A stretch of 64,000 nucleotides of DNA, from assembly GCF_044324785.1 (NCBI RefSeq), contig NZ_CP172127.1, one strand, 5' to 3'. Positions within the stretch are counted from its first letter, which is position 1, and the number at the start of each line of letters is the position of its first letter. Source of the DNA: Escherichia coli (GTDB lineage: Bacteria; Pseudomonadota; Gammaproteobacteria; Enterobacterales; Enterobacteriaceae). The translations under genes and the position numbers were made by a program. Shown piece after piece: positions 1 through 10,534 of the stretch. A model generated the notes under the pieces. That model did no database searches. It was not told the origin of the DNA and saw only the letters and a program-made list of their open reading frames with translations.

Positions 1-177
1 ATCGGCATGCACAAAAAAATCTTTAATCGTATTTCTTGTGTCATTAATTGTTTGATGTTCAGATTGTTTTCCTCGCGGGCTGGCGCGCCTCAGAAAGTAA
101 AGCTTGTTGACAGGGGTAAACGTTCGGCAATAATTTTCTGCCGCATGCGGGTGTTGCATAAAACGTGCTACGTTCCT

Positions 178-483
178 TTATCGACAGGTCAGGTCACCGC
201 TCACCCGCCGACGAGAAAGCAACACTGACATGCTAAAGCAAAAAATAGATGAATAAGTTGAGTTGTGCATATGTAGCCTGACCGTCACAAAGTATATGGT
301 GTCTGTACCAGTAAGATGATGGCCGGACTCTTTAAAAACGAGCTGACCTGCACAATACAGGATGGACTTAGCAATGGCTGCTCCTGGCACAAAGCGGACA
401 GTGATCACCGTTCTTACGACTACTTTCTGACTTCCTTCGTGACTTGCCCTAAGCATGTTGTAGTGCGATACTTGTAATGACAT
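178..483 (-). CDS. Hypothetical protein divergent from relB (possibly ydfV-like)
   Basis: 101-aa ORF in track, divergent from relBE; size matches my recollection of K-12 YdfV but sequence identity not verifiable. Confidence 0.3.
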   Translation of the reverse strand: MSLQVSHYNMLRASHEGSQKVVVRTVITVRFVPGAAIAKSILYCAGQLVFKESGHHLTGTDTIYFVTVRLHMHNSTYSSIFCFSMSVLLSRRRVSGDLTCR

Positions 484-495
484 TTGTAATTACAA
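444..495 (+). promoter_or_regulatory. relBE promoter/operator: -35 TTGCCC (444-449), 17-nt spacer, -10 GATACT (467-472), overlapping TTGTAAT/TTGTAATTACAA operator repeats (472-495)
   Basis: Sigma70-like hexamers with 17-bp spacing directly upstream of relB RBS; 12-bp palindrome TTGTAATTACAA at 484-495. Confidence 0.5.
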
Positions 496-507
496 GAGGT
501 GTAAGAC

Positions 508-747
508 ATGGGTAGCATTAACCTGCGTATTGACGATGAACTTAAAGCGCGTTCTTACGCCGCGCTTGAAAAAATGGGTGTAACTCCTTCTGAAGCGCTT
601 CGTCTCATGCTCGAGTATATCGCTGACAATGAACGCTTGCCGTTCAAACAGACACTCCTGAGTGATGAAGATGCTGAACTTGTGGAGATAGTGAAAGAAC
701 GGCTTCGTAATCCTAAGCCAGTACGTGTGACGCTGGATGAACTCTGA
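508..747 (+). CDS. relB: RelB antitoxin
   Basis: 79-aa ORF MGSINLRIDDELKARSYA... recognised as RelB; stop overlaps relE start (ATGA). Confidence 0.95.
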   Translation: MGSINLRIDDELKARSYAALEKMGVTPSEALRLMLEYIADNERLPFKQTLLSDEDAELVEIVKERLRNPKPVRVTLDEL

Positions 748-1034
748 TGGCGTATTTTCTGGATTTTGACGAGCGGGCACTAAAGGAATGGCGAAAGCTG
801 GGCTCGACGGTACGTGAACAGTTGAAAAAGAAGCTGGTTGAAGTACTTGAGTCACCCCGGATTGAAGCAAACAAGCTCCGTGGTATGCCTGATTGTTACA
901 AGATTAAGCTCCGGTCTTCAGGCTATCGCCTTGTATACCAGGTTATAGACGAGAAAGTTGTCGTTTTCGTGATTTCTGTTGGGAAAAGAGAACGCTCGGA
1001 AGTATATAGCGAGGCGGTCAAACGCATTCTCTGA
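747..1034 (+). CDS. relE: RelE mRNA interferase toxin
   Basis: 95-aa ORF MAYFLDFDERALKEWRKL... recognised as RelE. Confidence 0.95.
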   Translation: MAYFLDFDERALKEWRKLGSTVREQLKKKLVEVLESPRIEANKLRGMPDCYKIKLRSSGYRLVYQVIDEKVVVFVISVGKRERSEVYSEAVKRIL

Positions 1035-1105
1035 ACCAAAGCATGACATCTCTGTTTCGCACCGAAGGTGACACTTCTGCTTTGCGTTGACAGGAGAAGC
1101 AGGCT

Positions 1106-1261
1106 ATGAAGCAGCAAAAGGCGATGTTAATCGCCCTGATCGTCATCTGTTTAACCGTCATAGTGACGGCACTGGTAACGAGGAAAGACCTCTGCGAGGT
1201 ACGAATCCGAACCGGCCAGACGGAGGTCGCTGTCTTCACAGCTTACGAACCTGAGGAGTAA
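1106..1261 (+). CDS. hokD: Hok-family membrane toxin (51 aa), third gene of relBE operon
   Basis: Hand-translated (below 60-aa track cutoff): MKQQKAMLIALIVICLTVIVTALVTRKDLCEVRIRTGQTEVAVFTAYEPEE; Hok family single TM + C-terminal periplasmic tail. Confidence 0.85.
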   Translation: MKQQKAMLIALIVICLTVIVTALVTRKDLCEVRIRTGQTEVAVFTAYEPEE

Positions 1262-1331
1262 GAGACCCGGCGGGGGAGAAATCCCTCGCCACCTCTGATG
1301 TGGCAGGCATCCTCAACGCACCCGCACTTAA

Positions 1332-1356
1332 CCCGCTTCGGCGGGTTTTTGTTTTT
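1332..1356 (+). terminator. Intrinsic terminator after hokD
   Basis: Hairpin CCCGC-TTCG-GCGGG followed by TTTTTGTTTTT. Confidence 0.5.
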
Positions 1357-1477
1357 ATTTTCAACGCGTTTGAAGTTCTGGACGGTGCCGGAATAGAATC
1401 AAAAATACTTAAGTAGCGCGCAGGGATAAGAGGGATGGTCCCTTAAAGGGGAGAGCTAATTATCCGGAAGGATTCTG

Positions 1478-1729
1478 ATGATGAACATCGAAGAACTGCG
1501 TAAAATTTTTTGTGAAGATGGCCTCTATGCTGTGTGCGTTGAAAATGGAAATCTTGTTAGTCATTACCGCATTATGTGTTTGCGAAAGAATGGGGCTGCG
1601 TTAATTAATTTTGTGGATGCTCGGGTCACGGACGGATTTATCTTGCGCGAAGGTGAGTTTGTCACTTCATTACAGGCATTGAAAGAGATCGGAATAAAAG
1701 CTGGCTTTTCTGCTTTTTCAGGAGAATAA
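1478..1729 (+). CDS. rem: Rem (prophage protein of unknown function)
   Basis: 83-aa ORF MMNIEELRKIFCEDGLYAV...; position between hokD and ydfU as in Qin. Confidence 0.8.
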   Translation: MMNIEELRKIFCEDGLYAVCVENGNLVSHYRIMCLRKNGAALINFVDARVTDGFILREGEFVTSLQALKEIGIKAGFSAFSGE

Positions 1730-1795
1730 ACTCATCTACAATCTTGCGCGGGGCTGAACTCCCGCTGAGTAACACCGTGCCACCGGAGAAAACCG

Positions 1796-2074
1796 ATGGC
1801 ACGCAACGCAAAATATTACAATTCTGATAATTCGCCCGTTCTTGCCTGCACGCACGGGCGGTATTCTCACGCATTCAAGTCTGAATGGTTCCAGCACCCT
1901 CCATGCACTGCAGAACAGGCCGAATGGCTGATTCATTCTTACCGCAGGCGCGGGTTCGAGGTTAAGAAAGCTCTCAGTCTCGACTATCGGCACTGGATAA
2001 TCTCTGTCAGGCTGCCTTATTCCGAACGCCCACCACGTGCGTCCCGCACTTTCCAGCAACGGATCTGGAGGTAA
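1796..2074 (+). CDS. Hypothetical small protein (unassigned)
   Basis: 92-aa ORF, non-repetitive composition; overlaps ydfU start by ~38 nt in another frame; could also reflect a 5' extension/frameshift of ydfU. Confidence 0.3.
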   Translation: MARNAKYYNSDNSPVLACTHGRYSHAFKSEWFQHPPCTAEQAEWLIHSYRRRGFEVKKALSLDYRHWIISVRLPYSERPPRASRTFQQRIWR

Positions 2075-3125
2075 CGTGCGGGTATTACTTAGACCTGTTC
2101 TGGTGCCTGAGCTTGGGCTGGTGGTCCTTAAGCCGGGCCGTGAATCCATACAGATATTTCATAATCCTCGAGTGCTGGTGGAACCGGAACCAAAAAGCAT
2201 GCGTAATCTGCCATCCGGAGTCGTTCCTGCCGTTCGCCAGCCGCTGGCGGAAGACAAAACATTGCTGCCGTTTTTTAGTAACGAACGGGTGATTCGTGCT
2301 GCTGGCGGCGTTGGCGCATTGTCCGACTGGCTATTACGTCATGTTACATCCTGCCAGTGGCCTAATGGCGATTACCATCACACTGAAACAGTCATTCACC
2401 GTTATGGTACCGGCGCAATGGTGTTGTGCTGGCACTGCGACAACCAACTGCGTGACCAGACATCGGAATCACTGGAGCTGCTTGCTCAACAAAATCTGAC
2501 AGCATGGGTGATTGACGTCATCCGTCACGCAATAAGCGGTACGCAGGAGCGGGAATTATCTTTGGCTGAATTATCCTGGTGGGCGGTCTGCAATCAGGTG
2601 GTGGATGCACTACCTGAGGCTGTATCGCGTCGTTCGCTGGGATTACCAGCGGAAAAAATCTGCTCGGTGTACCGCGAAAGCGACATCGTACCGGGAGAGC
2701 AGACCGCCACCAGCATATTGAAACAACGCACAAAAAATCTTGCACCGTTGCCTTACGCCCACCAGCAACAAAAATCACCACAGGAAAAGACGGTGGTAAG
2801 CATCACCGTTGATCCAGAGTCTCCGGAATCTTTCATGAAGCTGCCTAAACGTCGCCGCTGGGTTAAGGAGAAATACACACGTTGGGTTAAGACACAGCCG
2901 TGTGCTTGCTGCGGTATGCCAGCCGACGATCCGCATCATCTGATTGGTCACGGGCAGGGCGGAATGGGAACAAAAGCACATGATCTCTTTGTGTTGCCTT
3001 TGTGCAGAAAGCATCACAACGAGCTGCATACGGATACAGTGGCATTTGAAGATAAGTATGGCTCCCAACTGGAGCTGATATTTCGTTTTATCGATCGCGC
3101 GCTGGCAATTGGCGTACTGGCGTAA
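2037..3125 (+). CDS. ydfU: YdfU-family protein (DUF968) with C-terminal HNH-like zinc motif
   Basis: 362-aa ORF; C-terminus CACCGMPADDPHHLIGHG...CRKHHNELH resembles HNH/Zn-finger; exact start uncertain (in-frame GTG ~2073 possible). Confidence 0.75.
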   Translation: MRPALSSNGSGGNVRVLLRPVLVPELGLVVLKPGRESIQIFHNPRVLVEPEPKSMRNLPSGVVPAVRQPLAEDKTLLPFFSNERVIRAAGGVGALSDWLLRHVTSCQWPNGDYHHTETVIHRYGTGAMVLCWHCDNQLRDQTSESLELLAQQNLTAWVIDVIRHAISGTQERELSLAELSWWAVCNQVVDALPEAVSRRSLGLPAEKICSVYRESDIVPGEQTATSILKQRTKNLAPLPYAHQQQKSPQEKTVVSITVDPESPESFMKLPKRRRWVKEKYTRWVKTQPCACCGMPADDPHHLIGHGQGGMGTKAHDLFVLPLCRKHHNELHTDTVAFEDKYGSQLELIFRFIDRALAIGVLA

Positions 3126-3138
3126 GTGGAGAACGAGC

Positions 3139-3891
3139 ATGAACCTTGAAGCCTTACCAAAATATTACTCCCCAAAATCTCCAAAATTGAGCGATGACGC
3201 TCCAGCGACAGGCACCGGTTGTTTAACAATTACGGATGTAATGGCAGCGCAGGGGATGGTGCAGTCGAAAGCACCACTTGGGTTGGCCTTATTTCTGGCA
3301 AAAGTTGGTGTTCAGGACCCCCAGTTTGCGATTGAAGGCCTGCTAAATTACGCGATGGCACTGGATAACCCGACATTGAACAAATTGAGTGAAGAAATCC
3401 GGTTACAGATTATTCCTTACCTCGTGAGTTTTGCCTTTGCTGATTACTCCAGGTCTGCGGCAAGTAAGGCTCGCTGTGAGCATTGTTCAGGTACGGGATT
3501 TTATAATGTATTGCGCGAAGTGGTGAAACACTACAGACGCGGGGAATCTGTAATCAAGGAAGAATGGGTGAAGGAACTATGTCAGCATTGCCATGGTAAG
3601 GGCGAAGCCAGCACAGCGTGCAGAGGGTGTAAGGGTAAAGGGATTGTTCTGGATGAAAAAAGAACCCGGTTTCATGGCGTACCGGTATATAAGATTTGTG
3701 GGCGTTGTAATGGAAACCGGTTTAGTCGTTTACCGACCACGCTGGCACGACGTCATGTCCAGAAGCTGGTACCAGACCTGACCGATTATCAGTGGTATAA
3801 GGGGTATGCGGACGTCATTGGTAAACTGGTAACAAAGTGCTGGCAGGAAGAAGCATACGCGGAAGCGCAATTGAGGAAGGTGACAAGATAA
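3139..3891 (+). CDS. quuQ: Late-gene antiterminator Q
   Basis: ORF 3109-3891; start placed at MNLEAL (250 aa); multiple CxxC zinc-finger pairs (CEHCSGTG, CQHCHGKG, CRGCKGKG, CGRCNG) typical of Q-family antiterminators. Confidence 0.85.
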   Translation: MNLEALPKYYSPKSPKLSDDAPATGTGCLTITDVMAAQGMVQSKAPLGLALFLAKVGVQDPQFAIEGLLNYAMALDNPTLNKLSEEIRLQIIPYLVSFAFADYSRSAASKARCEHCSGTGFYNVLREVVKHYRRGESVIKEEWVKELCQHCHGKGEASTACRGCKGKGIVLDEKRTRFHGVPVYKICGRCNGNRFSRLPTTLARRHVQKLVPDLTDYQWYKGYADVIGKLVTKCWQEEAYAEAQLRKVTR

Positions 3892-3922
3892 ATGATTTTT
3901 GCTGAAGATGGCGACATGATGT

Positions 3923-3951
3923 TTGCATTTTTCAAAAAATATGGATAAAAT
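3923..3951 (+). promoter_or_regulatory. Candidate late promoter (PR'-like): -35 TTGCAT, 17-nt spacer, -10 TAAAAT
   Basis: Near-consensus sigma70 hexamers ~30 nt downstream of Q stop and ~45 nt upstream of an intrinsic terminator, the lambdoid PR'/qut/tR' arrangement. Confidence 0.45.
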
Positions 3952-3996
3952 TTTTTCAACGATGGGCTTTGTATACCCGACGTTAAGAAAAAGTAG

Positions 3997-4026
3997 AAAA
4001 CCCGCTGATGAGCGGGTTTTGTGCTT
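3997..4026 (+). terminator. Intrinsic terminator downstream of Q (tR'-like)
   Basis: Hairpin CCCGCT-GATGA-GCGGG followed by TTTTGTGCTTT. Confidence 0.6.
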
Positions 4027-4312
4027 TAAATGGGGCAATGGTAATGTTGAATCTCATCCCGGGACTCATGTCTGTTAACTTATTATTTAGCTGGTGACTT
4101 GGTTATTTGCCTGATGTTTAAAATGTTTTCTTCCAGTACAATGTCCCTAAACACAATGAGTCTGCTTATTATATTATTAGCAGAGCTATTACGGCCAAAG
4201 TACAGCATAAGCTTTTAAAGCCAATCAACCAGTCATCAAGACAGACGGGGTTATTCATAAAAACTCTCCATGTGTGATCCGATGGGGCCTGAAATTAAAG
4301 CTTTAATATAGC

Positions 4313-4525
4313 TCATGAAAGGTAAACATTGGCAGCTGAAGGGCCACGCAGACCATTTATCCGGCAAAATTCCACGCGTAATCCGGTGGTAATTTCTTCT
4401 GCATCGCGGAGATTGAGCGCTGAGACATGAAGCTGGACATCGATACGACCATCGGATGGGGTGATAAGACCCTTGCCGCTTTTGCCGTCAAAGGTTTTGA
4501 CAATTCCTGTCATTTTACGGGACAA
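4313..4525 (-). CDS. cspF: Cold-shock protein CspA family
   Basis: 70-aa [29 protein letters not shown]...; CSD fold motifs. Confidence 0.9.
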
Positions 4526-4825
4526 AAAAATTCCTTAATACTGATAACTTGGCGCACTATACACACGTTCCTGAAGAAAGCTATAGTTTTTTGATGGGGT
4601 TGAAGATGGCTGGATGTCTAAAATAAACATTGCTTCATATGTTCAACTATGCGTTAATGATTGCGTCGGTTTGAAGAACAGACGATATACGAAGTAGTTT
4701 ACTAAAGCAGTTCTCATTTCAGGTGTTATTCACTTATTCCTTCTTTGAGTCTCTCCAATTAAGTACGAAGTCGTTTCTGTTATGCAAACCATTTATGCCG
4801 AAAGGCTCAAGTTAAGGAATGTAGA

Positions 4826-5041
4826 ATGTCAAATAAAATGACTGGTTTAGTAAAATGGTTTAACGCTGATAAAGGTTTCGGCTTTATTTCTCCTGTTGAT
4901 GGTAGTAAAGATGTGTTTGTGCATTTTTCTGCGATTCAGAATGATAATTATCGAACCTTATTTGAAGGTCAAAAGGTTACCTTCTCTATAGAGAGTGGTG
5001 CTAAAGGTCCTGCAGCAGCAAATGTCATCATTACTGATTAA
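4826..5041 (+). CDS. cspB: Cold-shock protein CspA family
   Basis: 71-aa [26 protein letters not shown]...; RNP1/RNP2 motifs; long AT-rich 5' leader. Confidence 0.95.
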
Positions 5042-5322
5042 AATTCATCGCTCGTCTGTATACGATAACGAAGAAGGCTGATGCCTGAGTAGAGATACGG
5101 ACAGAGTAGTGAATATTGGATCTCTTTAATAAAAAGTAAGGAGGTCCAATACATGAAACAATGGCTAGCATATTTGGCAAAATCTTAATCAGGAAAAGTA
5201 TGCTAACCATTGTGGTGAAGTGCAGGTTTGCTGCATGAATAGTTTTACAGCAGAAGCTAACTGCTGGCATGGCAAAACAAAGTGCGTAAGTGGATGACTC
5301 CCACAAAAAGCACCACAATCTC

Positions 5323-5348
5323 AAACCCGCTCAGGCGGGTTTTTTATT
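5323..5348 (+). terminator. Intrinsic terminator
   Basis: Hairpin CCCGC-TCAG-GCGGG followed by TTTTTTATTAT. Confidence 0.55.
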
Positions 5349-5404
5349 ATCTGCTTTAAATATATTATTAAAATATAAAAAATACTTGTTACTAATAAAA
5401 TCAA

Positions 5405-5575
5405 TCAGGCTACAGCTTTAAGATTTGTCTGGAATACTTTGTTGCAATGAGGGCAGATCAAAAGGGCACCTTTTTGTACTCTTGAAAAACTGTGTTCTGA
5501 CTCTTGGGTGCAGTTTGGGCAGGAACATTTAACGAGATAATTACGGCGTGATTTTGAGTTTTTACGTTCTGACAT
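5405..5575 (-). CDS. Small zinc-ribbon protein (56 aa from internal Met; possibly ynfU-like)
   Basis: ORF 5405-5626; MSERKNSKSRRNYLVKCSCPNCTQESEHSFSRVQKGALLICPHCNKVF has two CxxC pairs; name from uncertain recollection. Confidence 0.45.
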   Translation of the reverse strand: MSERKNSKSRRNYLVKCSCPNCTQESEHSFSRVQKGALLICPHCNKVFQTNLKAVA

Positions 5576-5794
5576 AGGCTTTTCCTGTATAAATGGCCGT
5601 ATACAGTACACTAAATATGAAAACATTTCTCGTATTATTATTTTATATATGACTTTCTTTCAAAATAATTACCCACATTTTTAATGTGTATGTTTTTTTA
5701 GCGCCGTTGAGAACAACGTGTGCTGTCAAAACTACCCCGTAGACTCCGATCTTTTCAAACATATTGCACCATCCGTGTACATCGGGGTGAGGAT

Positions 5795-6010
5795 ATGAAA
5801 TCAATGGATAAGTTAACAACAGGTGTTGCCTATGGCACATCGGCGGGTAATGCTGGTTTCTGGGCATTGCAGTTACTCGATAAAGTAACTCCGTCACAGT
5901 GGGCTGCAATCGGTGTGCTGGGTAGCCTGGTTTTTGGCCTGCTGACGTATCTGACAAATCTTTATTTCAAGATTAAAGAAGACAGGCGTAAGGCTGCGAG
6001 AGGAGAGTAA
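5795..6010 (+). CDS. essQ: Pinholin, phage 21 S-type, dual-start motif
   Basis: [26 protein letters not shown]... 71 aa; Met1 and Met4 starts as in S21 holin/antiholin; two TM segments; SD GGGGTGAGG upstream. Confidence 0.85.
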
Positions 6011-6014
6011 TCCA

Positions 6015-6322
6015 ATGACTCAAGACTATGAACTGGTTGTGAAAGGAGTCCGTAATTTTGAGAATAAAGTTACGGTAACTGTAGCCTTACAGGACAAAGA
6101 ACGCTTTGACGGTGAAATTTTTGACCTGGATGTCGCCATGGACCGTGTTGAAGGAGCTGCGCTGGAGTTTTATGAGGCAGCAGCCAGAAGGAGCGTCCGG
6201 CAAGTCTTCCTGGAAGTAGCAGAAAAATTGTCAGAAAAAGTTGAGTCTTATCTGCAGCATCAGTACTCCTTTAAGATTGAAAATCCTGCCAATAAGCACG
6301 AGCGTCCTCATCATAAATATAT

Positions 6323-6326
<4 letters not shown>
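6015..6326 (+). CDS. ydfR: YdfR (DUF1327) protein inserted between holin and endolysin
   Basis: 103-aa ORF MTQDYELVVKGVRNFENKV... Confidence 0.85.
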
Positions 6327-7350
<1,024 letters not shown>

Positions 7351-7713
7351 GGTAATATTAAATCGGAACATTTACATCGCGGAATGTAAAATTTAAATAA
7401 AAAGGACTCTTCCATGAGCCAAAATTCCTGAAATCTTAAGGGTAAGATAAAAGGTCTTAATCAGAATGACACGTTATTATTAATAAATAAAGCTATTCTT
7501 TCATTGCTGTGTTTTTCTTTACAAAAGTAATCCTTGCTATGGGTGGTTAATCATGCGTTAATGGTGTTCTGGTTTGTTACAAATTTATCTGAAGCAGTCA
7601 TTGTTATAATTTTATTATTTGTACCTCTTGAGATTTCCTTGTTGGTTTTTCTCTCTGATATTTTTTTTCGGACCATTCTGCCCAAGGGCTAATTTCTTCA
7701 AAAGGTAATAATT

Positions 7714-7926
7714 ATGTCTAACAAAATGACTGGTTTAGTGAAATGGTTTAACCCTGAAAAAGGTTTTGGTTTCATCACGCCGAAAGATGGCAGCAAAGAT
7801 GTGTTTGTCCATTTCTCAGCAATTCAGAGCAACGATTTCAAAACATTAACTGAGAATCAGGAAGTTGAATTTGGTATTGAGAACGGACCTAAAGGTCCTG
7901 CCGCTGTTCATGTAGTGGCGCTTTGA
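7714..7926 (+). CDS. cspI: Cold-shock protein CspA family
   Basis: 70-aa [26 protein letters not shown]...; long 5' leader. Confidence 0.95.
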
Positions 7927-8014
7927 GGTAGACAATATTACAAACCATATTCACTTTAGATGCCCGTGTTGTCATGGTTCCCAGTATAGAACATCATCTT
8001 TTGATGTTTCTGAC

Positions 8015-8125
8015 ATGAATCCTTTCGGGGCAAAATGTATCTTTTGTAAATCAATGATGATTACATTTGATAATATTTCACAATACTTAAATGCCAGCCG
8101 TCTGTCGTTGGATTTAAAAAAGTGA
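8015..8125 (+). CDS. Small Cys-containing ORF (possibly ynfN-like)
   Basis: Hand-translated MNPFGAKCIFCKSMMITFDNISQYLNASRLSLDLKK; in-frame upstream CPCCHG lacks canonical start; intrinsic terminator immediately downstream. Confidence 0.3.
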   Translation: MNPFGAKCIFCKSMMITFDNISQYLNASRLSLDLKK

Positions 8126-8132
8126 AAATGAA

Positions 8133-8153
8133 GGCTCCTTCGGGAGCTTTTTT
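8133..8153 (+). terminator. Intrinsic terminator
   Basis: Hairpin GGCTCC-TTCG-GGAGCT followed by T6. Confidence 0.45.
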
Positions 8154-8155
8154 GC

Positions 8156-8428
8156 TTGGTATCTATTCGATGGATACTCACATACTACGGTAACATCATG
8201 AAAAAAATCATAGTTTTTTTTAACTCTGAACCTGCAGTGGTAGTGCCAGCGATGACTGGAGTTAACACCATCATGCGTGAATATCCAAATGGCGAAAAAA
8301 CACACCTTACTGTAATGGCCGCAGGGTTTCCATCTCTGACCGGAGATCATAAAGTCATTTATGTAGCCGCGGATCGACATGTTACTTCAGAAGAAATTCT
8401 GGAAGCAGCAATAAGGCTCTTGAGTTGA
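8156..8428 (+). CDS. Hypothetical protein (unassigned moron ORF)
   Basis: 90-aa ORF; likely start at MKKIIVFF (8195, 77 aa); no family recognised. Confidence 0.4.
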   Translation: MVSIRWILTYYGNIMKKIIVFFNSEPAVVVPAMTGVNTIMREYPNGEKTHLTVMAAGFPSLTGDHKVIYVAADRHVTSEEILEAAIRLLS

Positions 8429-8596
8429 TTTGATGCTATTGTATTGATAATTCAGGAAAATTTTCTTTGTCTGTTTGTGTAAAATTTAGACTATCGTATG
8501 TTGATTATTGCGATGTTTCATCTTATCTTTTACACGTTTGCACCATATAATCGACTTACTGTGTAACTGGAAAGTCATAACAGACTAAAAGAGGAA

Positions 8597-8773
8597 ATGA
8601 TGAATATTGAAAACTTAAAAACAAAAGCAGAAGCAGATATTTCTGAATATATAACAAAAAAAATTATTGAACTTAAGAAAAAGACCGGGAAAGAAGTTAC
8701 CAGTATTCAGTTTACCGCACGGGAAAAAATGACGGGTCTTGAAAGCTATGATGTCAAGATTAATTTAATCTGA
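8597..8773 (+). CDS. gnsB: GnsA/GnsB family protein
   Basis: Hand-translated 58 aa MMNIENLKTKAEADISEYITKKIIELKKKTGKEVTSIQFTAREKMTGLESYDVKINLI; SD GAGG upstream. Confidence 0.8.
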   Translation: MMNIENLKTKAEADISEYITKKIIELKKKTGKEVTSIQFTAREKMTGLESYDVKINLI

Positions 8774-8924
8774 TGTATTCAATAATAAAATTTATCCATA
8801 AACCTCGTTTTTACGGGGTTTTGTTATATTTGAATGGTTCCGAATATCTAAATCACAATTGTTGATGGTTTTTATTAAACCAATGCAGTCCGGCTCAGGA
8901 GTGAGAGAAGCCGGACGTTATGGT

Positions 8925-9335
8925 TTAGCGTGGTAAGATCTGTGTAGTTTTCTGGATGCTTTCAGTAAATAGTAATGAATTATCAAAGGTATAGTAATAT
9001 CTTTTTTGTTCGTGGATATTTGTAACCCACCGAAAAACTCCTGCTTTAGCAAGGTTTCTTCTGTATTCCTGAAATGTGATCTCTCTGGATTTCAGCTTAT
9101 TAGAGGTCGTTTCTATAAGATGCCTATCCTTTGAAAATTTGACAGACACAATGTTTTTTAGGCCCTTTAATAACACTGTATTATCATTTTTTAATACAAT
9201 ATGAACATTCTCTGTGGCTAAATAGTAAATGTAATGTGAGACATTGTGACGTTTTAGCTCAGAATAAAACCATTGATAGTTTAAATCGTTTCGAACTTTA
9301 TCAAATATTTGTTTAAAAATGACTACCTGATCCAT
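8925..9335 (-). CDS. ydfO: YdfO (DUF1398) protein
   Basis: ORF 8925-9350; start placed at [13 protein letters not shown] (136 aa). Confidence 0.8.
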
Positions 9336-9392
9336 AGATAAACCTTCCATATGATATGAGGGGGCGTAGTCTGCACGATTATCTAAATTGCT

Positions 9393-9626
9393 TCAATCTG
9401 GTCTGACCTGTTTTCTGAGCAATTCAGTAATGTCACTCTTTTCTTTGTTTGCTTCAGAAGAAACTCTTTTTTCTGAGCACAGTCTCCGGCGGCAGGCTTC
9501 AATGACCCAGGCTGAGAAATTCCCGGACCCTTTTTGCTCAAGAGCGATGTTAATTTGTTCAATCATTTGGTTAGGAAAGCGGATGTTGCGGGTTGTTGTT
9601 CTGCGGGTTCTGTTCTTCGTTGACAT
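9393..9626 (-). CDS. ynfO: Arc/MetJ-like ribbon-helix-helix DNA-binding protein
   Basis: 77 aa; RNIRFPNQMIEQINIALEQKG...FSAWVIEACRRRL resembles RHH fold; homologous to an ORF at the lambda right end as I recall it. Confidence 0.75.
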   Translation of the reverse strand: MSTKNRTRRTTTRNIRFPNQMIEQINIALEQKGSGNFSAWVIEACRRRLCSEKRVSSEANKEKSDITELLRKQVRPD

Positions 9627-9789
9627 GAGGTTGTCCCGTATTCAGTGTCGCTGATTTGTATTGTCTGAAGTTGTTTTTACGTTAAGTTGATGCAGATCAA
9701 TTAATACGATATCTGCGTCATAATTGATTATTTGACGTGGTTTGATGGCGTAGATGCACGTTGTGACATGCAGATGATAATTATTATCA

Positions 9790-10014
9790 TTTTGCGGGTC
9801 CTTTCCGGCGATCCGACAGGTTACGGGGCGGCGACCTCGCGGGTTTTCGCTATTTATGAAAATTTTCCGGTTTAAGGCATTTCCGTTCTTCTTCGTCGTA
9901 ACTTAATGTTTTTATTTAAAATACCCCCTGAAAAGAAAGGAAACAACAGGTGCTGAAAACGAGCTTTTGGGCCTCTGTCGTTTCCTTTCTCTGTTTTTGG
10001 CCGTGGAATGAACA
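9790..10014 (+). other. cos site (cosQ-cosN-cosB) of lambda type; cosN 12-nt cohesive end GGGCGGCGACCT at 9827-9838
   Basis: Sequence ...GATCCGACAGGTTACG|GGGCGGCGACCTCGCGGGTTTTCGCTATTTATGAAAATTTTCCGG matches my recollection of the lambda right-end/left-end junction; lies immediately upstream of Nu1. Confidence 0.8.
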
Positions 10015-10534
10015 ATGGAAGTCAACAAAAAGCAGCTGGCTGACATTTTCGGTGCGAGTATCCGTACCATTCAGAACTGGCAGGAACAGGGAATGCCCGT
10101 TCTGCGAGGCGGTGGCAAGGGTAATGAGGTGCTTTATGACTCTGCCGCCGTTATAAGATGGTATGCCGAAAGGGATGCTGAAATTGAGAACGAAAAGCTG
10201 CGCCGGGAAGTTGAAGAACTGCGGCAGGCCAGCGAGACAGATCTCCAGCCAGGGACTATTGAGTACGAACGCCATCGACTTACGCGTGCGCAGGCCGACG
10301 CACAGGAGCTGAAAAATGCCAGAGACTCCGCTGAAGTGGTGGAAACCGCATTCTGTACTTTCGTGCTGTCGCGGATCGCAGGTGAAATTGCCAGTATTCT
10401 CGACGGGATCCCCCTGTCGGTGCAGCGGCGTTTTCCGGAACTGGAAAACCGACATGTTGATTTCCTGAAACGGGATATCATCAAAGCCATGAACAAAGCA
10501 GCCGCGCTGGATGAACTGATACCGGGGTTGCTGA

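Follow-up and report, generated by a model that had tools for sequence, protein, structure and literature searches.

The placement of cargo genes between a Q/pR′/tR′ unit and the lysis genes is established in Stx phages (PMC7547250, PMC6266700). The order there is Q-pR′-tR′-(tRNAs)-stxAB-lysis; the late promoter is constitutive and terminated, and transcription extends into the cargo, which precedes the holin gene, through Q antitermination (PMC7547250). In Stx2c and Stx2k phages the Q/pR′/tR′ segment is about 90% identical to that of the Escherichia coli prophage locus described here. Phage lambda also has a homologous Q, but about 680 bp separate its Q from S and there is no independent cargo. 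In the Qin prophage of E. coli K-12 MG1655 the gene order is ydfT/quuQ-ynfS-cspF-cspB-ynfU-essQ-ydfR-rrrQ-rzpQ-cspI. A further related arrangement is the chromosomal cspH-cspG-ymcF-ymcE-gnsA island. Its divergent csp pair has ∼76% identity to cspF-cspB, and its downstream portion shares 73–74% identity with cspI-ynfQ and gnsB, but it does not have Q, the promoter/terminator unit or the lysis genes.

The locus is contained in a 64-kb stretch of E. coli DNA, which was analysed as a whole and is termed the window (Table 1). cspF and cspB are flanked by a lambda-type late promoter on one side and by the lysis genes on the other, and the arrangement described in the original prediction is confirmed: Q, the TTGCAT-17-TAAAAT promoter, a terminator, cspF on the minus strand, cspB on the plus strand and a second terminator are all present at or near the positions assigned to them. 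The Q stop codon (3891) is separated from the essQ start (5795) by 1903 bp, of which a cassette forms 1.76 kb (about 4025–5782), with its 3′ limit at the essQ ribosome-binding site. The inventory of this interval was correct for the two csp genes, but ynfS and ynfU were overlooked; the gene content is ynfS(−), cspF(−), cspB(+) and ynfU(−).

Comparison with K-12 Qin, which had been proposed as a check, shows the same locus, with 99.7% identity over window positions 1–10382 and with the same gene order and regulatory elements. The window has ∼21 kb of genes for terminase, head and tail (about 10543–31711) that are missing from K-12 Qin; this full morphogenesis region is 97% identical to that of PhiR42_1. 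The arrangement is shared by complete genomes deposited for the phages PhiR42_1 (99.9%), 2H10 and Tritos, and can thus be reconciled with a functional lytic cycle. It is present in 1607 of 5426 complete E. coli genomes. Since the Qin layout has long been annotated, and since cargo usually occupies the slot after the late promoter, the placement of cspF and cspB is correct but ordinary, and was already known. The locus very probably represents the head of the late operon of a Qin-type lambdoid prophage, where a self-regulated moron cassette is crossed by Q-modified polymerase. Sequence elements, homology, conservation, cassette boundaries and K-12 RNA 3′ ends are the directly established components of this interpretation.

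Table 1. Features of the Q-to-cspI region, in window coordinates
Feature	Position	Strand	Basis
Q antiterminator gene ydfT/quuQ, 250 aa	3139–3891	+	ORF; RefSeq: antitermination protein
pR′-type late promoter	3923–3951	+	lambda pR′ alignment in register; conservation
AACGATGGG −10-like pause element	3958–3966	+	9-mer identical to that of lambda
tR′ intrinsic terminator, bidirectional	3997–4024 (hairpin 3997–4020)	+	fold, conservation, Term-seq
Weak hairpin, second late-strand 3′ end	4160–4192	+	antisense to ynfS; K-12 Term-seq
ynfS, small protein gene, 29 aa	4169–4258	−	MG1655 annotation; translation checked
cspF	4313–4525	−	NCBIfam CspF; annotation
cspB 5′ UTR, 161 nt, cspA-type thermoregulator	4665–4825	+	Rfam RF01766
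cspB coding sequence	4826–5041	+	NCBIfam CspA subfamily; annotation
Highly structured cspB 3′ region	5042–5156	+	fold; dominant cspB-strand 3′ end at 5154–5156
Hairpin + T6, bidirectional	5323–5348		scan, fold; identical in phage 2H10
ynfU, zinc-binding small protein gene, 56 aa	5405–5575	−	convergent with cspB
Overlapping promoter-like sites	5634–5669		scan
Lysis cassette	5795–7350	+	ORFs, annotation
essQ	5795–6010	+	
ydfR	6015–6326	+	
rrrQ	6323–6856	+	
rzpQ/rzoQ	6853–7350	+	
Second cold-shock cassette: cspI and thermoregulator	7568–7953	+	Rfam RF01766, annotation

The Q protein displays two matches to Pfam PF03589 (E 9.2e-31 and 1.1e-19) and a DnaJ CXXCXGXG domain. It aligns over its full length with lambda Q (BLASTP, 33% identity, E 2e-40), with the exception of a 48-amino-acid insert of the DnaJ zinc-finger type that is not found in the lambda protein. 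The profile and the similarity to lambda Q place the protein in the lambda Q family, and the gene is positioned directly upstream of a promoter (3923–3951) and a terminator (3997–4024). This promoter/terminator unit co-varies with the Q allele in the eight loci compared.

The promoter consists of a −35 hexamer, TTGCAT (3923–3928), a 17-bp spacer and a −10 hexamer, TAAAAT (3946–3951). It had been described as near-consensus, which is a generous description: TTGACA is matched at three of six positions only, or at four of six if the hexamer is read as TTTGCA with an 18-bp spacer. A promoter scan detects nine comparable sites in 2.4 kb, compared with 6.8 ± 2.7 in shuffled sequences, and the match to consensus alone is thus no better than chance. 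That the promoter is real is shown by orthology, by conservation and by the in vivo RNA 3′ end at its terminator. On the basis of sequence, it is the orthologue of lambda pR′. The geometry and the 9-mer AACGATGGG are identical to those of lambda in register, with AACGATGGG starting six bases past the −10 hexamer in both, and the predicted pR′/tR′ layout is borne out to the level of the pause element. The 17-bp spacer, which corresponds in position to the lambda Q-binding site, has a different sequence. Within the 64-kb window the composite promoter/pause pattern occurs once, against 0.05 occurrences expected. pR′ is almost invariant across the eight loci with the same Q allele, and the pause element of the relatives in this comparison reads AAYGATRGG. 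At the sequence level, the unit combines a sigma-70 promoter, a −10-like element within the stretch that is transcribed first and an intrinsic terminator close downstream. By analogy with lambda pR′, AACGATGGG would induce a sigma-70-dependent promoter-proximal pause, and transcription probably starts at 3958 (+1).

The tR′ hairpin is followed by UUUUGUGCUUU. The predicted pR′-tR′ RNA is about 67 nt and consists of an A-rich AAGAAAAAGUAGAAAA linker and then the terminator hairpin; it folds at −30.4 kcal/mol (z = −4.75). In lambda, tR′ is about 190 nt from the start. The tR′ stem is kept in the eight loci despite changes in loop and stem bases. A K-12 Term-seq 3′ end at MG1655 1642356(−) corresponds to window position 4024, exactly at tR′, and has three entries in a file that covers three growth conditions (Adams 2021, supplement 1). 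This Term-seq evidence was obtained with K-12 cells at 37 °C and represents neither this strain nor cold-shocked or induced cells. A terminator scan scored tR′ on the minus strand only; the plus strand was missed because the T tract is short (T4-GTGC-T3, with T4 compared with T7–T8 in the relatives). A second late-strand 3′ end, 1642188(−) or window 4192, appears in one of two Term-seq list sections, at a weak hairpin whose fold is not significant (z = −0.85). Together with the short T tract, this 3′ end suggests that some Q-independent read-through or an unrecognised start may exist. On the minus strand, the same tR′ hairpin also terminates the cspF-ynfS transcript, which would run opposite to the late strand and end at the back of the hairpin. 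It is a remote possibility that the constitutive ∼67-nt RNA acts in trans like StxS.

The hairpins 3997–4020 and 5323–5342 are both followed by GCTTTAAAT and were considered as a duplication formed by insertion of the cassette. This was rejected, as the AAACCCGC...GCGGGTTT combination is widespread among terminators and the flanks are otherwise unalignable.

Bases 4025–5782 are best explained as a "moron" cargo cassette in the standard slot between Q/pR′/tR′ and the holin gene. The boundaries were compared by DNA alignment, and homology breaks are sharp. Similarity to five relatives without csp genes stops just after the tR′ T tract. With PhiR40_1 it restarts at window position 5783, as it does for phages that carry an essQ-type holin (about 5783); the holin-upstream region of phiSTEC1575-Stx2k and of 2013C_3678 is unrelated to that of the window. 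The segment is present or absent among otherwise homologous phages, and its base composition differs from that of the flanking phage genes (34–45% GC in the cassette and 46–50% in Q and the lysis genes). It has its own promoter and terminator and is expressed from the repressed prophage, the expression data being from the K-12 literature. With respect to gene products, CspF scores 160.4 bits with the NCBIfam CspF model (cut-off 111), CspB 144.3 bits with the CspA subfamily model (cut-off 130) and YnfU 79.4 bits with the YnfU family model (cut-off 36). The YnfS and YnfU proteins have been detected in K-12 (10.1101/511675).

The interval between Q and the holin gene had been regarded as unusually long. 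This does not hold for phages with the same Q/pR′/tR′, as all six relatives examined have 1.7–4.4 kb of other cargo in the slot before the holin gene, which shows a long gap to be normal for this family. SfV and mEp460 carry a methylase there, phiSTEC1575 carries stx2k and tRNAs, 2013C_3678 has an esterase and PEC165 has hypothetical genes. The window differs from Stx phages in that its cargo is a divergent cold-shock pair with two small genes, that three of the four cargo genes are on the opposite strand and that the promoter, leader and 3′ end of cspB are its own, the promoter being cold-inducible.

The cspB promoter is just upstream of the 5′ UTR, at about 4630–4660. The Rfam model RF01766 matches positions 4665–5057 with 158.8 bits and the cspI thermoregulator with 112.8 bits (gathering score 78), and both cspB and cspI span model positions 1–428. 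A Rho-dependent 3′ end is found in the cspB 5′ UTR at window position 4746, and a region of Rho termination has been mapped to 4843 (Adams 2021). The region 3′ to cspB folds at −43.2 kcal/mol (z = −6.94), and the K-12 3′ ends 1641226 and 1641224(−), at window 5154–5156, have the highest values among the Term-seq rows listed for this region. cspB would be under the control of its own signals: the cold-inducible cspA-type promoter and the 161-nt leader would direct its transcription, with Rho attenuation at 37 °C and transcripts ending at 5154–5156. The expression of cspB is explicable without Q dependence.

An 11-codon open reading frame at 5138–5189 is preceded by a perfect Shine-Dalgarno sequence but is unlikely to be a gene. 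Its Shine-Dalgarno sequence forms the 3′ arm of a 14-bp hairpin, its ATG coincides with the dominant RNA 3′ end, and non-synonymous changes are found in phage 2H10.

The second terminator was predicted to be at 5323–5348, and the hairpin with its T6 tract is present there. The K-12 3′ end in its vicinity, 1641060(+) or window 5320, is on the ynfU strand and not on the late strand, and no late-strand 3′ end at 5323–5348 is among the K-12 Term-seq rows listed (37 °C). As the 3′ end is on the opposite strand, the hairpin is considered to terminate ynfU, whose transcript would run opposite to the late strand and end at the back of the hairpin at 5323–5342. An Rfam Trp_leader match at 5264–5348 is a chance match to what is merely a terminator (21.7 bits compared with a gathering score of 41, E 0.64).

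These 3′ ends bear on the proposed coupling between lysis timing and the cold-shock regulon, whereby cold-induced cspB transcription would leak into essQ and cold shock would prime or trigger the holin and endolysin. essQ has the orientation of cspB and follows it at a distance of 754 bp, without any sense gene in between, NCBIfam family descriptions call CspA-family proteins transcription antiterminators, and a transcriptome-mining study placed csp genes and 13 Qin genes, not named there, in one co-activated set (PMC11256956). Three barriers nevertheless stand in the path of such a transcript. The first is the very stable 3′ structure with the dominant Term-seq end, where K-12 cspB transcripts stop at 37 °C; the others are the intact 5323–5348 hairpin/T6, which is kept in 2H10, and the convergent ynfU. 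Also against leakage, no late-strand 3′ end between 5156 and about 8822 is among the K-12 Term-seq rows listed (37 °C). K-12, which carries the cassette and intact lysis open reading frames, survives cold shock despite massive cspB induction, and this too counts against coupling. The proposal is considered highly improbable.

Transcription of the lysis genes from a promoter of their own, in the 5350–5794 spacer, would bypass the cassette and make Q read-through irrelevant to lysis. The spacer displays a plus-strand site, TTTATA-16-AATAAT (5642–5669), in the direction of essQ, which matches consensus at 9 of 12 positions. A sigma-70 holoenzyme genomic SELEX peak with H-NS co-binding, assigned to "essQ--rrrQ-ydfP", is in the essQ-cspB spacer (PMC3946193), where the scan finds the same hexamers. 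This peak upstream of essQ leaves room for Q-independent transcription of the lysis genes. The assignment is older than the annotation of ynfU, which was unannotated in 2014, and the plus-strand site overlaps a better one on the minus strand (TTGAAA-18-AATAAT, 10 of 12 positions) that is suited to ynfU and at the right distance from it. The −35 hexamer of the plus-strand site is altered in 2H10, and an unregulated holin promoter would be harmful in a lysogen. In two other relatives a terminator-like hairpin is directly before the holin gene, and one is annotated in SfV; such pre-holin terminators fit with Q dependence. A separate lysis promoter is on these grounds improbable.

For the preferred interpretation, a cassette crossed by Q-modified polymerase, we infer Q loading, pausing and read-through as follows. 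In the lysogen, pR′ would be constitutive, and polymerase would pause at AACGATGGG and stop at tR′ (4024), which yields the ∼67-nt RNA. Upon induction, Q would load onto the paused polymerase and render it resistant to terminators. The late transcript would then pass tR′, ynfS and cspF in antisense, cspB in sense, the 5323–5348 terminator and ynfU in antisense. It would continue through essQ-ydfR-rrrQ-rzpQ, the segment from cspI to gnsB and ∼21 kb of head and tail genes. In the cspI-gnsB segment, cspI is followed by ynfQ/ymcF, ynfR, ynfN and gnsB, to about 8822, and a K-12 Term-seq 3′ end is found after gnsB at about 8822. That late transcripts are antisense over cspF and sense over cspB before they reach essQ, as originally predicted, is required by the layout. 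It is plausible, by analogy with stx (PMC7547250), that Q antitermination drives cspB. The literature searched (quuQ, essQ/cspB, Qin, ydfR) contains nothing on Q-dependent csp expression or on cold-induced Qin lysis genes.

A broader role has to be considered, in which the csp genes are functional late genes and Q-driven CspB and CspI, in the capacity of RNA chaperones or antiterminators, aid the transcription or translation of the long late mRNA, especially at low temperature, while late transcription silences cspF, ynfS and ynfU by antisense interference. The sense-oriented cspB and cspI flank the lysis cassette and are retained in phage genomes with 95–99.9% identity, there is the analogy to Q-driven stx, and opposite-strand genes are in the path of the late transcript. 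However, csp genes are absent from relatives that have Q, promoter and lysis genes in common with this locus, including the complete phages SfV, mEp460 and phiSTEC1575-Stx2k, and are thus dispensable; in addition, translation and stability are restricted by the cspA-type leader when the temperature is 37 °C. This role appears unlikely, if less so than the alternatives above. It is compatible with the moron explanation, to which it adds a benefit to the phage. That the cspB and cspI cassettes are not passive cargo but make late expression or lysis temperature-dependent is quite doubtful; this could occur by leakage of cspB transcription into essQ or by Q-driven CspB and CspI acting on the late transcript.

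The finding itself adds little: the K-12 reference annotation already contains this gene order, and cargo after pR′/tR′ is the textbook Stx-phage/moron layout. The Qin late promoter is now precisely placed, with a lambda-like pause element and with in vivo termination evidence at tR′. Synthetic constructs are integrated in the essQ-cspB spacer (PMC2847246), and this site is within a potentially Q-antiterminated transcription path. With respect to the chromosome, the cspH-cspG-gnsA island looks like the product of a cspB/cspI crossover that joined the two Qin cassettes, with loss of the lysis cassette. If this is true, the origin of the island from a Qin-type late region would neatly illustrate prophage domestication.

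The interval between the antiterminator gene Q (ydfT/quuQ) and the holin gene essQ contains every element named in the original prediction, that is Q, a promoter, two hairpins, cspF, cspB and essQ, and all were present as described, but two small minus-strand genes, ynfS and ynfU, had been overlooked. The structural reading of a pR′/tR′ layout with csp genes ahead of the lysis genes is correct. The Q stop codon and the essQ start are 1903 bp apart. The first 10.4 kb of the window is 99.7% identical, in reverse orientation, to the cryptic prophage Qin of K-12 MG1655 and matches the annotated K-12 order relB-relE-hokD-rem-ydfU-ydfT(Q)-ynfS-cspF-cspB-ynfU-essQ-ydfR-rrrQ-rzpQ-cspI-...-gnsB. The csp arrangement is thus already known in kind and in instance: the reference annotation of K-12 lists these genes in this order, and morons (autonomous cargo cassettes in phage operons) and Stx phages follow the same logic. 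Of 5426 complete E. coli genomes, 1607 cover at least 80% of a 3-kb Q-to-essQ query.

Features of the Qin-type late region (window positions)
Feature	Position	Strand	Remarks
relB-relE toxin-antitoxin pair and hokD	508-1261		precede rem, ydfU and Q; same placement in K-12 Qin
Q open reading frame	ends 3891	+	250 codons
−35, TTGCAT	3923-3928	+	followed by a 17-bp spacer
−10, TAAAAT	3946-3951	+	from sequence
First hairpin (tR′)	3997-4020		GC-rich; UUUUGUGCUUU directly after
ynfS	4169-4258	-	annotated small gene
cspF	4313-4525	-	open reading frame/annotation
cspB	4826-5041	+	open reading frame/annotation
Second hairpin with six T	5323-5348		from sequence
ynfU	5405-5575	-	annotated small gene
essQ, holin gene	starts 5795	+	open reading frame
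Second cold-shock cassette	7568-8822		cspI with its own RF01766 thermoregulator, ynfQ/ymcF, ynfR, ynfN, gnsB

Approximately 21 kb of terminase, portal, tape-measure, head and tail genes (window ∼10543-31711) are retained that are absent from K-12, and the strain is therefore not K-12. These morphogenesis genes share 97% identity with phage PhiR42_1, over 24 kb, and with other lambda-like phages. The late operon has retained all its downstream genes; the prophage may be complete. Complete genomes deposited for the phages PhiR42_1 (99.9%), 2H10 (94.8%, a classified species) and Tritos carry the identical csp arrangement, which is therefore compatible with a working lytic cycle. The second cold-shock cassette, cspI to gnsB, follows the spanin gene and precedes the terminase region, a position that is the other classic site for cargo in lambdoid late operons.

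By homology, the Q open reading frame encodes a lambda-family Q; it has two matches to Pfam PF03589 (E 9e-31 and 1e-19) and 33% full-length identity to lambda Q (E 2e-40). It differs from lambda Q in a 48-residue insert that contributes two extra CXXCXGXG motifs, which give a DnaJ-type zinc-finger array. The consensus match of the promoter alone is unremarkable. The −35 fits at just three or four positions, and a promoter scan detects 9 comparable sites in 2.4 kb vs 6.8 ± 2.7 in shuffled sequences. The geometry, however, is shared with lambda pR′: in both, 17 bp separate the −35 from the −10, and an identical 9-mer, AACGATGGG, follows six bases after the −10. In lambda pR′, this −10-like element at +1 to +6 induces a sigma-70-dependent pause where Q loads. 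The 64-kb window has a single match to the composite pattern TAAAWT-N6-AAYGATRGG, vs 0.05 expected. The spacer, which is the position of Q binding in lambda, differs in sequence from that of lambda; it is almost invariant across eight loci with this Q allele. The tR′ hairpin is kept in the same eight loci with changed loop and stem bases, and the predicted fold of the pR′-tR′ RNA is far more stable than that of shuffles (z = −4.75).

K-12 Term-seq data place an RNA 3′ end at 1642356 (minus strand), which is window position 4024, eight bases past the GC stem; it is listed three times in a file on three growth conditions (Adams et al., 2021, supplementary file 1). The promoter therefore appears to be active in the cryptic lysogen, with its transcripts ending at tR′. 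Promoter and terminator are a genuine pR′/tR′ unit. The lambda 6S RNA and StxS of Stx phages display the same pattern of transcripts ending at tR′ (PMC7547250). The predicted pR′-tR′ RNA of ∼67 nt (3958-4024, +) consists of a 5′ stem-loop, an A-rich linker, AAGAAAAAGUAGAAAA, and the terminator hairpin. As modelled, it resembles Hfq-binding small RNAs in overall form, and by analogy may be comparable to StxS, the pR′-derived small RNA of Stx phages. In the literature searched, no paper was found that locates the late promoter of Qin or mentions its lambda-like pause element; locating it refines what is known and is not a discovery in itself.

The csp genes form a cargo cassette at the position where such phages usually carry one. 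Q, promoter and terminator are found at ∼90% identity in five relatives: SfV, mEp460, phiSTEC1575-Stx2k and the PEC165 and 2013C_3678 prophages. In all five, homology to the window ends just past the terminator T tract. In phiSTEC1575-Stx2k and 2013C_3678, the sequence upstream of the holin gene is unrelated down to the ribosome-binding site. In another phage with an essQ-type holin, the match resumes from window 5783. These breaks at both ends delimit the cassette to about 4025-5782. Its GC content is 34-45% vs 46-50% in Q and the lysis genes. The original prediction implied that so long a gap between Q and holin is odd, and in lambda the distance is about 680 bp. The five relatives, however, span 1.7-4.4 kb, with other cargo in the same slot: a small open reading frame and a DNA methylase in SfV (1.7 kb), hypothetical genes in the PEC165 prophage (1.8 kb), three genes in mEp460 (2.3 kb), a sialate-esterase-like gene in the 2013C_3678 prophage (3.0 kb), and regulators, three tRNAs, stx2k and an opposite-strand iraM-like gene in phiSTEC1575 (4.4 kb). 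Long gaps are thus typical of this Q family.

The cassette carries its own signals. For cspB, a cspA-type thermoregulator matches Rfam RF01766 over its full length (158.8 bits vs a threshold of 78); it starts at 4665, giving a 161-nt leader. K-12 data at 37 °C place a Rho-dependent 3′ end within this leader, at window 4746, and a region of Rho termination where the open reading frame begins, at window 4843 (Adams et al., 2021). The dominant cspB-strand 3′ end in K-12 Term-seq, at 5154-5156, has the highest numeric-column value among the rows displayed for the region and is just past a very stable two-hairpin structure (5042-5156, +; −43.2 kcal/mol, z = −6.9). As this end has no U tract, the cspB 3′ region may represent a processed, stable 3′-UTR fragment. 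An 11-codon open reading frame (5138-5189, +) with a perfect Shine-Dalgarno sequence, TAAGGAGGT, seven bases ahead is probably not a gene; the Shine-Dalgarno forms one arm of a 14-bp hairpin, and the ATG coincides with the dominant RNA 3′ end.

The hairpins at 3997-4020 and 5323-5342 look bidirectional, and both appear to insulate the cassette from its neighbours. An opposite-strand K-12 3′ end at window 5320, at the foot of the second hairpin, indicates that this hairpin terminates ynfU; the K-12 Term-seq list has no late-strand 3′ end at the 5323-5348 terminator. The tR′ hairpin was flagged by the scan as a minus-strand terminator and is positioned to end a cspF-ynfS transcript.

The two Qin csp cassettes on either side of the lysis genes are both represented in the core chromosomal island cspH-cspG-ymcF-ymcE-gnsA, which is a mosaic of them. 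Window segments 4317-4940, 7710-8073 and 8582-8774 were compared with NC_000913 1050963-1052240. The left part of the island is 75.7% identical to cspF through the first third of cspB; the right part is 74.5% identical to cspI-ynfQ and 73% to gnsB. By sliding identity, cspG resembles cspB in its upstream part and cspI further downstream; the switch is at ∼+60 to +80 of the coding sequence. This pattern fits descent from an old Qin-type late region in which recombination between cspB and cspI, as direct repeats, would have removed the lysis cassette. No paper describing the island as a Qin cassette mosaic was found in the literature searched.

Standard Q/pR′/tR′ working is most likely for the locus. 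The sequence elements, their conservation, the boundaries and the K-12 3′ ends are observed; Q loading and read-through are inferred from homology and from how lambda and Stx phages behave. The pR′ promoter would be constitutive, with polymerase pausing at AACGATGGG and, without Q, halting at tR′. With Q, a terminator-resistant polymerase would pass, in order, the 4192 site, the Rho-dependent sites of the cspB leader, the 5154 structure and the 5323-5348 terminator, and then enter the lysis and morphogenesis genes. Along this path, cspB and cspI would be transcribed in the sense direction, whereas transcription across ynfS, cspF and ynfU would be antisense.

A coupling of lysis timing to the cold-shock regulon, as had been proposed, is not borne out. 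The sole point in its favour is the co-orientation of cspB and essQ, and several barriers lie between them. K-12 with intact lysis open reading frames tolerates massive cspB induction in the cold. The displayed K-12 Term-seq list has no late-strand 3′ end from 5156 to the gnsB terminator. One correlative hint comes from transcriptome mining, which groups six csp genes with 13 unnamed Qin genes as co-activated (PMC11256956). By analogy with stx, the opposite relation, in which Q would drive cspB, is plausible.

In the essQ-cspB spacer, SELEX with sigma-70 holoenzyme gave a reported peak, with H-NS, that was assigned to essQ, with hexamers TTTATA-16-AATAAT (PMC3946193). This sequence, a candidate for an essQ promoter of its own, is at window 5642-5669 and is overlapped by a better minus-strand site, TTGAAA-18-AATAAT (5663-5634), which is well placed for ynfU. 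The ynfU gene was not yet known when the peak was assigned. Synthetic constructs and reporter libraries are integrated into the chromosome at the same spacer (5349-5794; PMC2847246), which a potentially Q-antiterminated late transcript would cross and which contains an expressed small gene, ynfU.
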